The position numbers and the translations under genes are program-made. A model generated the notes under the pieces. It had not been told where the DNA came from and made no database searches. It worked only from the letters and a program-made list of their open reading frames with translations. Of a stretch of 53,800 nt of DNA, positions 1,800 to 4,863 are shown piece by piece. Position 1 is the stretch's first letter; each line of letters begins with the position of its first letter. The DNA is from an uncultured Thermotogae bacterium (lineage in GTDB: Bacteria; Bipolaricaulota; Bipolaricaulia; M55B111). The DNA lies in the NCBI GenBank assembly GCA_964506635.1, contig CAZDMI010000001.1:1-53800 (forward strand), in the 5' to 3' direction.

Positions 1800-1828
1800 T
1801 TGACAATTTACCCAAAAATAGATATTAT
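1800..1828 (+). promoter_or_regulatory. Sigma70-like promoter of the TrpXYZ-type importer operon
   Basis: TTGACA (1800-1805), 17-nt spacer, TATTAT (1823-1828). Predicted TSS near 1835, giving a leader of about 250 nt. Confidence 0.55.
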
Positions 1829-1864
1829 TGTTTAAATTATGAATTAAGAGAGGTTCATTTGGCC

Positions 1865-1960
1865 ATGAATGAAAAAAGGTCTCAAATTAACAAATCAGTG
1901 GAGGTGATAGAGAGAGAGGAGAGGTATAAAGTTAGCTATACTTATTATTGGTACGAGTGA
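1865..1960 (+). CDS. Leader peptide (31 aa), Tyr/Trp-rich: MNEKRSQINKSVEVIEREERYKVSYTYYWYE
   Basis: ATG at 1865, with GAGAGG (1848-1853) 11 nt upstream. Five Tyr codons and one Trp codon fall within the last 11 codons (1925-1954). The stop TGA (1958-1960) directly abuts the 5' arm of the first leader hairpin. The ORF is below the 60-aa cutoff of the ORF track. Confidence 0.6.
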   Translation: MNEKRSQINKSVEVIEREERYKVSYTYYWYE

Positions 1961-1997
1961 GGTTTAGGGTGCTTCATCAAAATATTTACCCTAAACC
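1961..1997 (+). promoter_or_regulatory. Leader hairpin 1:2 of the putative attenuator
   Basis: Perfect 10-bp stem GGTTTAGGGT (1961-1970) / ACCCTAAACC (1988-1997) with a 17-nt loop. TAAACC (1992-1997) can alternatively pair with GGTTTA (2011-2016) inside the terminator. Confidence 0.6.
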
Positions 1998-2002
1998 CAG
2001 GC

Positions 2003-2032
2003 AAACTATAGGTTTATCCTATAGTTTTTTTT
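2003..2032 (+). terminator. Leader (attenuator) terminator upstream of the importer genes
   Basis: Stem ACTATAGG (2005-2012) / CCTATAGT (2018-2025), loop TTTAT, followed by a T8 run (2025-2032). It lies 52 nt before the ATG at 2084. Confidence 0.7.
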
Positions 2033-2083
2033 ATTTGGCGTCGTCAATAAAAAGAGATATAGACTACCTCACAGGAGGTAATC

Positions 2084-3118
2084 ATGCGATCAAAAAGAAG
2101 TCTTCCTCTAGTTATCCTGGTGGGAACCCTTCTTATTGTCGGTTTTTCTTTCGGAGCGGTGACCGCGGAGAAACCGGTCAAAATCGGAATAGCTCAAATC
2201 GTCGAACACCCGGCCTTAAACGCCGTGCGGGACGCGGTAATTGAAGTCGTAAAAAATAACGGTTACGAAGAGGGCAAGGACGTCAAATTCTTGCTCAGAA
2301 ATGCTCAGGGAGACTTCAACAACGCCCTCTCTATAGCTCAGACCTTCAAGTCACAAAACGTGGACATCGTGGTACCGATAGCTACACCGACTGCCCAGGC
2401 AGCTGCCGAGGTATTTAACGAAACTCCGGTAGTAGTTAGTGCGGTTACAAACCTCGTTGAGGCAGGGCTTGTCGATAATTATTCTGATTACGAGAACCCG
2501 GAAAACAACGGCAACATAACCGGGGTTACTGACATGACGCCGGTGGAAAAGCAGATCCAGTTAATTACCGACCTGAGACCGGAATTAGAAAAAATAGGTA
2601 TCGTCTATAACCCCGGCGAAGCAAATTCGCGTTACCTCACTTCAATAGCTGAAGAAGTCGCGAGTGATATGGGGATAAAAATAGTTAAGGCGACTGCAAA
2701 CAAAACCAGCGAGGTAAAGATGGCCGCGGACTCCCTGAAAGGAAGAGTCGATGCAATCTGGATTTCAACCGACAACACGGTTGTATCCGCTCTTCCCGCC
2801 GTCTCCGAGGTCGCCAGAAACGAAAATATTCCCCTTGTTACCGCCGATCCAACCACGATACAGGACGGTCCGGTTGCCGCTTTTGGCTGGAGTTACGCCC
2901 GTCACGGCAGAATTTGTGGAGAGGTAGTCGTTAGAATTCTTGAAGGGGAAAAACCGAACGAGATACCGATTCATGAACTGGAACAAACGGAAGAAAACAT
3001 ATCAATGGCATTGAACTTGAACGTTGCAAGCGAAATCAACCTCGAATTCCCCGATTCGGTACAAAAACAGGCCGATCGGTTGTACTTTGGAGAACGGCTC
3101 TGGGTTCCGGAGGAGTAA
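2084..3118 (+). CDS. ABC transporter substrate-binding protein, ABC_sub_bind (PF04392-like) family; putative tryptophan/tyrosine transport system type
   Basis: GGAGG SD 5 nt upstream and a signal peptide. Family-typical segments: KIGIAQIVEHPALNAV, NAQGD, PIATPTAQAA, NITGVTD, DAIWISTDNTVVS, ILEGEKPNEIPI. Confidence 0.9.
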   Translation: MRSKRSLPLVILVGTLLIVGFSFGAVTAEKPVKIGIAQIVEHPALNAVRDAVIEVVKNNGYEEGKDVKFLLRNAQGDFNNALSIAQTFKSQNVDIVVPIATPTAQAAAEVFNETPVVVSAVTNLVEAGLVDNYSDYENPENNGNITGVTDMTPVEKQIQLITDLRPELEKIGIVYNPGEANSRYLTSIAEEVASDMGIKIVKATANKTSEVKMAADSLKGRVDAIWISTDNTVVSALPAVSEVARNENIPLVTADPTTIQDGPVAAFGWSYARHGRICGEVVVRILEGEKPNEIPIHELEQTEENISMALNLNVASEINLEFPDSVQKQADRLYFGERLWVPEE

Positions 3119-3155
3119 CGGACTAATCTCAAAAACCAAGCGGTGATCTCAATCG

Positions 3156-4058
3156 ATGTCACTTCTGATTAACTCTCTAGAACAAGGTCTTGTTTACGGA
3201 TTAATGGCTCTCGGGGTCCTGATAACTTTCAGAGTACTGGACTTTCCAGATCTGACGGTTGACGGCAGTTTTCCTATGGGGGCGGGGATCACCGCTTCTC
3301 TACTTGTCATGGGGTGGAATCCGGTTCTTGCCATCGTAATTGGTATAGCCGGTGGGGTCCTGGCCGGTACCGTGACCGGTATGTTGAGTACCAAGTTAAA
3401 CATTTTGAACCTGCTTGCGGGTATTCTTACGATGACCCTCCTCTACTCAGTAAATTTGAGGATCATGGGCCGGCCAAATATTCCCCTGATAGGTAGAGTT
3501 ACGATTATTGAACAGGTCGACCAGCTAATAGAACCTCTGGGTCTCGGGCGTTATTCGACTCTATTATTCTTTGCCGTACTGGTTCTTTTCATAAAGCTAT
3601 TACTCGACGTATTCTTTAATACCGAAATCGGCCTGGCTCTTCGAGCAACCGGAGATAACGAACAAATGATCAAGGCCCAGGGCGTCAATACGGACAACAT
3701 GAAAATCCTCGGTCTTGCCATCTCGAACGGGTTAGTTGCCCTGTCCGGCGGTCTGGTCGCTCAGTATTCCGGTTTTGCCGACGTCGGAATGGGAATCGGA
3801 ACGATAATAGCCGGCCTTGCTTCGGTAATTATAGGAGAAACACTATTACCAACGAAGAGTTTCCGCTGGATGACCACCGCCGTAATCGTGGGTTCATTGA
3901 TATACCGGACCACCATAATGGTCGCCCTGAGGTACGGTCACAACTTTGGCTTCAAATCGAGTGACTTAAAGCTGATAACCTCAATGATAGTAATTCTAGC
4001 ACTTGCAGTTCCTCAGGTAAGAGGGAAAATTGATCTGAGATTTGGGGAAGAAACTTAA
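3156..4058 (+). CDS. ABC transporter permease (BPD_transp_2 type) of the same system
   Basis: 300-aa polytopic membrane protein immediately downstream of the binding protein. Typical N-terminus: LEQGLVYGLMALGVLITFRVLDFPDLTVDGSF. Confidence 0.9.
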   Translation: MSLLINSLEQGLVYGLMALGVLITFRVLDFPDLTVDGSFPMGAGITASLLVMGWNPVLAIVIGIAGGVLAGTVTGMLSTKLNILNLLAGILTMTLLYSVNLRIMGRPNIPLIGRVTIIEQVDQLIEPLGLGRYSTLLFFAVLVLFIKLLLDVFFNTEIGLALRATGDNEQMIKAQGVNTDNMKILGLAISNGLVALSGGLVAQYSGFADVGMGIGTIIAGLASVIIGETLLPTKSFRWMTTAVIVGSLIYRTTIMVALRYGHNFGFKSSDLKLITSMIVILALAVPQVRGKIDLRFGEET

Positions 4059-4074
4059 GTATGGGAGGAGAATT

Positions 4075-4863
4075 ATGTTAGAAGTCATCGACCTGAGCAA
4101 GAAGTTTCTGGAGGGTACCAACAACGAAGTCGTGGCACTGGAAAAGCTGAGTTACCACCTCGAAGAAGGCGACTTCGTATCGGTGATCGGGAGCAACGGA
4201 GCAGGGAAGACGACTTTCCTGGATTTGATCGCAGGTAGTTCCTACCCCACTACCGGAAAGGTGCTCGTAGAAGATACAAACGTCACCAGTTATTCCGAAC
4301 ACCAGCGAGCTGCCTACATTGGAAGGGTATTCCAGGAACCCGGCAAGGGTACTGCACCGGGAATGACCGTAGCCCAGAACCTGAGCCTTGCTTTGAAGAA
4401 AACGAATCGGGGACTGCGCAGGGGAGTTACCCCGGAGCGAAAGAAAAAGTTTCGGGATGAACTGAGCAAGCTGGGACTGGGTCTCGAAGACAGACTTGAG
4501 GAGAGAATTAGACACCTATCAGGCGGCCAGAGGCAGGGAGTCGCCGTGCTCATGGCAACCCTCACCACTCCAAAATTGCTGCTCCTCGACGAACACACGG
4601 CTTCACTCGACCCGAAAAACGCCGAAAAAATAATTGATATTACGGAAAAGCTGGTGGAAGCCAAAGGGTTGACCACGATCATGGTAACCCACGACATGAA
4701 ACAGGCCCTCGATCTCGGCAACAGGTTAACCATGCTTCACCGGGGAAACATAGTCTACGACGTAAATGGTCGTAAAAAACAGGCGTTGACAATTGACGAT
4801 CTGCTCGAGAGCTTTTCCGAGAGGGACATAGAGGACGACGAGCTTCTGCTCAGCATCGAGTAG
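4075..4863 (+). CDS. ABC transporter ATP-binding protein of the same system
   Basis: ATG at 4075 with GGGAGGAG SD; the ORF track extends it to a TTG at 4042. Walker A GSNGAGKTT, signature LSGGQRQ, Walker B LLLLDE. Confidence 0.9.
   Translation: MLEVIDLSKKFLEGTNNEVVALEKLSYHLEEGDFVSVIGSNGAGKTTFLDLIAGSSYPTTGKVLVEDTNVTSYSEHQRAAYIGRVFQEPGKGTAPGMTVAQNLSLALKKTNRGLRRGVTPERKKKFRDELSKLGLGLEDRLEERIRHLSGGQRQGVAVLMATLTTPKLLLLDEHTASLDPKNAEKIIDITEKLVEAKGLTTIMVTHDMKQALDLGNRLTMLHRGNIVYDVNGRKKQALTIDDLLESFSERDIEDDELLLSIE

Follow-up and report, generated by a model that had tools for sequence, protein, structure and literature searches.

In ribosome-mediated attenuators of the trpL and pheL type in Proteobacteria, a short open reading frame (ORF) carries clustered codons for the amino acid under control and stops soon after them; a hairpin starts where the ORF ends, and an intrinsic terminator stands before the structural genes. 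The same layout was found at positions 1,800 to 2,083 of a 53,800-nucleotide (nt) stretch of contig CAZDMI010000001.1 (assembly GCA_964506635.1; this whole stretch is called the window below), upstream of the genes of a TrpXYZ-type ATP-binding cassette (ABC) importer. We consider it probable, at roughly 0.6, that this leader is a ribosome-mediated leader-peptide attenuator, which couples an aromatic amino-acid importer to the charging of tRNA-Tyr and tRNA-Trp and, in most relatives, also of tRNA-Phe. The window leader differs from trpL and pheL in several respects. Its regulatory codons lie just upstream of the 5′ arm of the first hairpin (arm 1) and not inside it, its codon set is a mixture of Tyr and Trp (with Phe elsewhere in the family), and its target is an importer rather than a biosynthetic operon. 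No 2:3 antiterminator was detected in it, and it has no sequence or covariance-model match to those leaders. The Rfam amino-acid leader families (Trp, Phe, His, Leu and Thr leaders) were likewise discarded as candidates, with no covariance-model match.

Attenuators that read more than one amino acid are known, such as the thr leader with Thr and Ile codons and the ilvGMEDA leader with Leu, Val and Ile codons. They resemble the window leader in mixing codons for related amino acids within one leader peptide, but belong to proteobacterial biosynthetic operons with well-defined alternative helices. In Firmicutes, the homologous importer operon trpXYZ of Streptococcus suis is T-box controlled and induced by Trp limitation (PMC9382623), in line with what had been stated of Firmicutes homologues in a first-pass annotation, which read this DNA from its letters alone. 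The T-box operons of Streptococcus suis and other Firmicutes encode an orthologous PF04392 importer, and there too premature intrinsic termination answers tRNA charging. However, their sensor is an RNA of ~460 nt that binds uncharged tRNA (PMC9382623), whereas the window has a putatively translated ORF instead. A further pair of upstream ORF (uORF) and terminator tied to aromatic amino-acid metabolism is the uORFC-13-1 motif, a predicted uORF beside a terminator stem upstream of aroF in Acholeplasma (PMC8632094). Unlike the window leader, it belongs to another phylum, precedes the gene for the first shikimate-pathway enzyme and has a U-run that codes for at least one Phe; the two are unrelated in sequence.

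The window leader is made up of the following elements.

1800-1828, + strand: sigma-70-type promoter TTGACA-17-TATTAT, -35 box at 1800-1805 and -10 box at 1823-1828, 11/12 consensus match.
1848-1853, + strand: Shine-Dalgarno (SD)-like GAGAGG of the leader ORF, assigned from the sequence.
1859-1960, + strand: leader peptide ORF, 33 codons from TTG 1859 or 31 from ATG 1865.
1925-1954, + strand: regulatory codon cluster, with Tyr codons at 1925, 1937, 1943, 1946 and 1952 and a Trp codon at 1949.
1958-1960, + strand: TGA stop codon of the leader ORF; the peptide is (MA)MNEKRSQINKSVEVIEREERYKVSYTYYWYE, with the C-terminus YKVSYTYYWYE.
1961-1970 and 1988-1997, + strand: arms of hairpin 1, a perfect stem of 10 base pairs (bp), -13.8 kcal/mol, beginning right after the stop codon.
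2003-2036, + strand: intrinsic terminator, stem 2003-2012/2018-2027, loop TTTAT, T8 run 2025-2032, then ATTT; -10.6 kcal/mol.

Most of these elements had been described in the first-pass annotation, and the promoter, the 31-codon ORF at 1865-1960 with its upstream GAGAGG and aromatic C-terminus, the 10-bp hairpin abutting the stop codon and the GGTTTA at 2011-2016 were all recovered where it had placed them. Its terminator was correct as to the T8 run, but the stem has 10 bp and not the 8 bp it had given. No second promoter-like site was present on the + strand within 1400-2300. GAGAGG lies 5 nt from the in-frame TTG 1859 and 11 nt from ATG 1865. The TTG has the better SD spacing, and relatives have TTG, GTG or ATG at its position; it may be the real leader start. 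Within 1937-1954, Tyr or Trp takes 5/6 codons. The fold of the leader was better than that of all 200 dinucleotide shuffles (200/200, z = -2.7).

Upstream regions were compared around relatives of the binding-protein gene, at 80 loci from species-representative genomes and 80 from metagenomes. The detector required at least 4/6 aromatic codons no more than 30 codons from a stop, together with a hairpin and T-run within 160 nt. An aromatic-rich ORF followed by an intrinsic terminator was detected upstream of the orthologous PF04392 gene at 94 loci, which comprised every Bipolaricaulota/Acetothermia locus with enough upstream DNA as well as Thermotogota. L117 and L133 also carry the ORF, with a terminator below the detector threshold. 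By the same detector, the element occurred in 0/54 loci of Proteobacteria, Clostridia and others that have the same transporter family. ORF, codon cluster, both helices and their geometry are conserved, and the link to this importer is exclusive in two phyla. Aromatic-codon enrichment in orthologous leaders was one of the points on which the first-pass annotation had let its reading stand or fall, and the enrichment across the 94 loci was overwhelming, which supports its proposal of leader-peptide control by aromatic codons. When the detector was run over both strands of the whole window, it gave 7 matches; the three non-leader matches checked sit inside long coding ORFs and were rejected as further attenuators. 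The nearest proteins and contigs are named Candidatus Acetothermia or Bipolaricaulota. Many TPA_asm records of metagenome-assembled genomes (L002, L003, L005 and others) are titled 'uncultured Thermotogae bacterium', and their close relatives are named Candidatus Acetothermia/Bipolaricaulota, indicating that record titles alone mislabel the phylum.

The enrichment was confined to one end of the peptide. Among 75 unique leaders, the aromatic fraction was 0.40 in the last 14 codons versus 0.07 in the remaining peptide; that of the three transporter proteins of the window was 0.057. Phe, Tyr and Trp are all present in 62/75 unique peptides, and the window clade has Tyr and Trp only. Three leader subfamilies were recognized in Bipolaricaulota: A, to which the window clade belongs (...E-V-I-x(8-13)-Y-x-Y-x-(Y)-W-Y-x(1-4)-stop), the GC-rich B (M-[NI]-E-A...F-Y-W-F-W-[FY]-x-x-G-F-x-A-A-R-stop) and C (E-V-I...F-Y-x-W-Y-W-F-x-stop). 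Thermotogota leaders read M-T-R-A-A-Y-V-S-Y-V-Y-A-Y-W-F... in Mesotoga and ...N-Y-S-Y-F-Y-F-T-W... in Thermotogaceae. Across subfamily A, the promoter -35 box and the GATATTAT -10 box are kept, and an AGAGG(G)T block is conserved in the leader alignment at the SD-like site. Throughout the 94 loci, insertions and deletions in the ORF come in multiples of three, and the reading frame, the start codon and the position of the stop are kept. Changes between TAT and TAC and between TTT and TTC, all of them synonymous, are frequent, lineages exchange F, Y and W for one another, the N-terminal part varies in sequence and length, and AT-rich aromatic codons are kept even in the GC-rich leaders of subfamily B. 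Because F, Y and W interchange, the N-terminus varies and the indels respect the frame, selection appears to act on the codons of a translated frame, and not on the peptide or on an untranslated RNA.

These features bear on whether the short ORF is simply a separate gene that encodes a small aromatic-rich protein and ends in a terminator of its own, with constitutive leak-through into the importer genes. The ORF does have a strong promoter and an SD in front, a start codon, and a terminator behind it, as such a gene would, and the terminator was never out-competed in the folding models described below. On the other hand, conservation is limited to the aromatic run, and even there the number of aromatic codons drifts: of two very close relatives, L005 (2839-2877) has CGG (Arg) for the TGG Trp codon, which leaves a Tyr-only leader, and L087 (2048-2086) has TCT (Ser) for one TAT Tyr codon. 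The peptide has neither a signal peptide nor a hydrophobic segment, and the ORF is always linked to the aromatic amino-acid importer in both phyla. Moreover, no promoter-like site and no conserved block were found from the terminator to the ribosome-binding site of the binding-protein gene, indicating that the operon depends on readthrough. An independent gene is quite unlikely on this evidence.

The RNA structures were compared as well. For subfamily A, RNAalifold gave two conserved helices and no more, hairpin 1 and the terminator, with compensatory changes at 5/18 pairs. Among 17 sequences, 4/8 consensus pairs of hairpin 1 stay paired through two-sided changes, and the basal pair of the terminator covaries between A-U and G-C. 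The CTATAGG/CCTATAG core of the terminator is invariant in this subfamily, over binding-protein identities of 55-92%, in which hairpin 1 covaries. Both helices recur in subfamily B, where the base of hairpin 1 covaries clearly, and a terminator is present in all 94 leaders (-11 to -32 kcal/mol). The CTATAG of the terminator stem (2003-2027) is also a DNA palindrome, and a similar AAA(C/T)TAT(A/T)G stands just after the -10 box in most relatives (1836-1846 in the window). The palindrome and its copy after the -10 box may reflect a second constraint, for instance a protein operator.

Some invariance at the nucleotide level that coding leaves unexplained could suggest that the leader works as an RNA that binds a protein or tRNA, or as a riboswitch, and that the ORF is incidental. 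It is seen in the CTATAGG/CCTATAG stem, in the internal motif GAGGTGAT and in the UGGU after every Trp codon. However, only two simple hairpins are conserved, and the frame, start and stop position persist through 3-nt indels at 94 loci in two phyla. Searches of the window at the gathering score, of 1500-2150 with E up to 10 allowed and of 14 related loci found no Rfam family, T-box included. The T-box riboswitch (RF00230) was rejected specifically, since Stem I with its specifier loop and the antiterminator bulge were not matched. We regard such an RNA element as very improbable.

The geometry of the ORF and the two helices was then nearly constant. All 70 unique Bipolaricaulota leaders have the start of the hairpin 1 5′ arm 0-9 nt downstream of the last aromatic codon, with the stop codon inside or against this arm, and leave 0-9 nt between the end of the 3′ arm and the terminator, which in the window begins 5 nt downstream of hairpin 1. 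The features of a classical attenuator are present here as far as a translatable ORF with SD and start, a regulatory codon cluster and an intrinsic terminator are concerned. On the attenuator reading, the promoter at 1800-1828 would start a transcript near 1835, and a ribosome would translate the 31-33-codon leader ORF behind the moving RNA polymerase. With Tyr and Trp plentiful, this ribosome would reach the stop codon at 1958 and depart, hairpin 1 (1961-1997) would close and the terminator (2003-2032) would form, so that a leader RNA of ~200 nt would be released and the importer genes would be off. With charged tRNA-Tyr or tRNA-Trp scarce, the ribosome would dwell at 1937-1954 and, at the last codons, hold the 5′ arm of hairpin 1 in its mRNA channel. 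The 3′ arm would then be left single-stranded beside the terminator, and the weak, AU-rich terminator would be delayed, allowing readthrough into 2084-4863. That starvation would lead to readthrough (ON) is suggested by the T-box-controlled homologue (PMC9382623) as an analogy; the coupling step from hairpin 1 to the terminator is likewise a proposal.

That coupling step is where the classical scheme fits least well. The first-pass annotation had proposed a 1:2/2:3/3:4 switch of the trp/pheA type, and this did not hold up: its 2:3 helix is weak, the terminator persists, and no co-evolving partner was found. A 2:3 antiterminator was seen neither in the window nor in subfamilies A, B and C, and only the Thermotogota relatives have one. 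Several results weigh against a classical attenuator. The 2:3 helix TAAACC(1992-1997):GGTTTA(2011-2016) has -3.1 kcal/mol versus -10.6 kcal/mol for the terminator, and with arm 1 masked the equilibrium probability of the terminator is still 0.997. The terminator was also retained when a ribosome footprint was modelled in turn on every Tyr and Trp codon and on the stop codon. By RNAduplex, no stretch in subfamilies A, B or C paired with the terminator 5′ arm better than shuffled sequences did, and swapping cognate for non-cognate partners gave equal energies (A, -4.7/-4.7; B, -11.2/-11.6; C, -9.5/-8.8 kcal/mol). The sole overlap conserved in subfamily A, and with it the one conserved candidate for the coupling, is a 4-bp CCUA:UAGG core that the hairpin 1 3′ arm shares with the terminator 5′ arm; as a helix it amounts to -1.1 kcal/mol. 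Stalls at the first Tyr codons leave hairpin 1 intact, and only the last 2-3 codons of the cluster put the ribosome over arm 1; in the models, hairpin 1 was disturbed only with the ribosomal A-site at 1949, 1952 or 1958. Furthermore, the stop codon abuts arm 1, and a terminating ribosome masks this arm just as a late-stalled one does, so the distinction between the two would rest on dwell time alone. A classical reading accordingly needs dwell time plus a very weak competitor helix. Finally, an SD match of at least 4/5 was found in only 53/75 leaders.

The same picture was obtained beyond the window. At equilibrium the terminator likewise persists in representatives of subfamilies A, B, C and Mesotoga. 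The GGTTTA loop occurs only in relatives with at least 79% binding-protein identity and is lost in L007-L011, L086 and L088; in the window clade, UAAACC:GGUUUA extends the CCUA:UAGG core. By these models, the overlap could act kinetically only, and not at equilibrium. A co-evolving partner of either terminator arm was sought in Bipolaricaulota across the post-cluster region, the ORF upstream and the spacer downstream, and none was found. One candidate for such a role lay at the start of the leader, where AAATTATGAA (window) or AAACTATAGG (L010) might mimic the terminator 5′ arm and pair with the 3′ arm. Judged by eye, L010 would form this pairing strongly and L008 and L011 weakly, and in L009 it is broken; it was rejected.

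The Thermotogota leaders (Mesotoga L041 and L144; Thermotogaceae L037, L053 and L149) share the transporter family, the aromatic-rich ORF and the terminator, but differ from the window leader in having an explicit, co-evolving antiterminator. Here, the terminator 5′ arm has a partner in the strand that directly follows the aromatic codons, at -19 kcal/mol in L041 (z = -3.9) and -15.5 kcal/mol in L037 (z = -2.5). In the swap test, cognate pairs were more stable than non-cognate ones (-16.8 vs -11.7 kcal/mol), and this was so in 8/8. By its pairing this strand is a clear antiterminator, which would be exposed by an upstream stall and covered by a ribosome translating on. The Thermotogota ORF also runs 10-15 codons past the aromatic cluster, its stop lies downstream of the post-cluster hairpin in 4/7, and it has no internal SD-like motif.

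With the sensor unchanged, namely ribosome speed over the aromatic codons, hairpin 1 in Bipolaricaulota might be gated by the ribosome and act directly on the polymerase or on the adjacent terminator, by a hairpin-dependent pause, by steric or stacking effects or by a put-like modification, with no RNA-RNA competition. In an inverted variant, a closed hairpin 1 could mean starvation and ON, and a hairpin 1 masked by a terminating ribosome could mean OFF. The position of the stop codon, inside or against the 5′ arm in 70/70 leaders, suits masking by a terminating ribosome, and the close spacing of hairpin 1 and terminator, the missing antiterminator in subfamilies A, B and C and the failure of ribosomes at early cluster codons to touch hairpin 1 point the same way; in Thermotogota, moreover, the equivalent strand must be exposed for readthrough. 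However, we found no precedent for a leader-peptide attenuator that works in this manner. The sequence of hairpin 1 differs among subfamilies A, B and C, which counts against a sequence-specific polymerase-binding RNA, and the aromatic codons stand 0-9 nt from arm 1, as a classical masking design predicts. We hold a direct action of hairpin 1 to be unlikely, though a serious rival.

An internal SD-like motif provided a further peculiarity of the leaders of subfamilies A and C.

1900-1908, + strand: internal SD-like GGAGGTGAT (codons E-V-I), a perfect complement of the 3′ end of 16S ribosomal RNA.

GAGGTGA is invariant, third codon positions included, in 11/11 aligned subfamily A leaders, and subfamily C keeps GGTGAT. 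In every A lineage a Trp codon follows the internal GAGGTGAT at 48-51 nt, although the N-terminal part varies from 27 to 50 nt. Such a distance would suit a second ribosome that waits, with its anti-SD on the motif, behind one stalled at the Tyr/Trp codons, which we offer as inference only. It is possible, though rather unlikely, that the Bipolaricaulota leader is an attenuator with no antiterminator, in which hairpin 1 gates termination directly and the internal GAGGTGAT may position the queued ribosome. For the internal GAGGTGAT, subfamily A offered no consistent pairing partner. Subfamily C leaders allow a pairing with arm 1 of hairpin 1, and the window clade allows one with CTACCTCAC before the SD of the binding-protein gene. 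A start codon served by the internal SD was present only in L004 and L006, and this candidate was rejected. A hungry-codon frameshift or stop readthrough through the terminator was rejected as well: the -1 frame of the window is open from 1948 to 2244, through the terminator, but an alternative frame is open in only 2/17 subfamily A leaders.

The choice of stop codon was examined together with the possibility of an arrest peptide. TnaC of the tna operon senses free Trp through its nascent chain at a fixed geometry and blocks Rho. It resembles the window leader in being a Trp-related leader peptide that controls, among others, a Trp permease; the window family differs by a variable spacing to the stop and by its intrinsic terminator. 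In a mechanism of this sort, free Tyr or Trp would stall the ribosome at or near the stop and induce the operon by its substrate. The C-terminal motif does contain Trp, and the stop codon is embedded in structure. In addition, the leader stop is UAG in 52/70 distinct Bipolaricaulota leaders (loci L007-L035 and L086-L155), 40/47 among those of subfamily B, versus ~36% in long ORFs of the same subfamily B loci. However, 2 to 12 codons separate Trp from the stop, depending on the lineage, residue conservation across subfamilies does not reach beyond the aromatic run, and the downstream signal is an intrinsic terminator and not a Rho site. An arrest peptide of the TnaC type is, in our judgment, highly improbable. 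Arm 1 of the window clade still includes a TAG, out of frame, at 1965-1967.

The attenuator reading implies a substrate for the importer, whose genes lie directly downstream.

2062-2083, + strand: ribosome-binding region of the binding-protein gene, with AGGAGGT at 2073-2079.
2084-3118, + strand: substrate-binding protein of a TrpXYZ-type importer (PF04392, Pfam E = 3.8e-76).
3156-4058, + strand: permease (PF02653, BPD_transp_2; Pfam domain).
4042-4863, + strand: ABC ATPase (PF00005; Pfam domain), start codon approximate.

The PF04392 binding protein, the PF02653 permease and the ABC ATPase together give the make-up of a TrpXYZ-type operon, and the family label of the first-pass annotation agrees with the JGI/KEGG name, 'putative tryptophan/tyrosine transport system'. 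The nearest solved structures of the binding protein are 3LKV, 6HNI and 3LFT (E = 7e-55 to 6e-39), relatives with Phe, Tyr and Trp as ligands (PMC6816091). Two specificity positions are D255 and Y271 in the window protein. Asp-255 aligns with the Tyr-contacting Glu-263 of CD0873, and Tyr-271 aligns with a Gln of the Trp binder, which suggests Tyr or Phe as the ligand rather than Trp. However, both residues are invariant in all relatives, proteobacterial and leader-less ones included, so they do not discriminate the substrate and add little. As a correlate of leader codon content, the specificity residues were consequently rejected as uninformative; judged from sequence, the codon content of the leader is the better clue to the substrate.

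The SD of the binding-protein gene is partly sequestered by a local hairpin of ACCTC (2066-2070) with GAGGT (2075-2079), in close relatives only. In the window clade alone, the internal GTGGAGGTGA (1898-1907) can pair with CTACCTCACA at -9.6 kcal/mol, which would free this SD; the GTGGAGGTGA:CTACCTCACA pairing is lost in more distant relatives. Subfamily B has a spacer of 150-320 nt from the terminator to the binding-protein start (L025, about 2833-3000; L017, L018, L020 and most others), with several GC-rich hairpins such as GGCCCGCCCGCGAG..., GGACGATC...GATCGTCC and GGTCC...GGACC. An SD-like GGAGGTGA follows right after the T-tract, and the spacer has no Rfam match. All three frames are open in this GC-rich spacer, which gives no evidence either way on a second uORF.

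On the other side of the leader, a divergent gene for a LivJ-type binding protein (PF13458) occupies 232-1524 of the window on the - strand and has its own promoter-like TTGTAT-17-TATAAT, near 1560-1590 on the minus strand. Between the divergent promoters, the spacer (1615-1795) shows no relationship across the window, L002 and L005, relatives in which the leader is conserved.

Leader-peptide attenuators as a kind are well known. New here are the codon set, the target, the phyla and the apparent lack of an antiterminator in Bipolaricaulota. Our literature search found nothing on leader-peptide control of the PF04392 transporter family, nor on such leaders in Thermotogota or Bipolaricaulota, and the element is not in Rfam 15. 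Leader-peptide attenuation would thus be extended to a candidate phylum that has no cultured model (Bipolaricaulota/Acetothermia), to Thermotogota, and to an uptake system that Firmicutes control by T-box. The same transporter would be governed by the same signal, tRNA charging, through convergent RNA-level sensing in these phyla and in Firmicutes. The leader codons would also provide independent evidence for the substrate of an otherwise uncharacterised importer, pointing to Tyr and Trp in the window clade and to Phe, Tyr and Trp in most relatives. If hairpin 1 does gate termination and a queued ribosome takes part, this would be a new route from ribosome speed to a transcription decision. 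The family of 75 distinct leaders includes Bipolaricaulota members that lack the helix defining the classical scheme and Thermotogota members that have it, and this contrast makes it testable which minimal RNA features let a stalled ribosome defeat a terminator.

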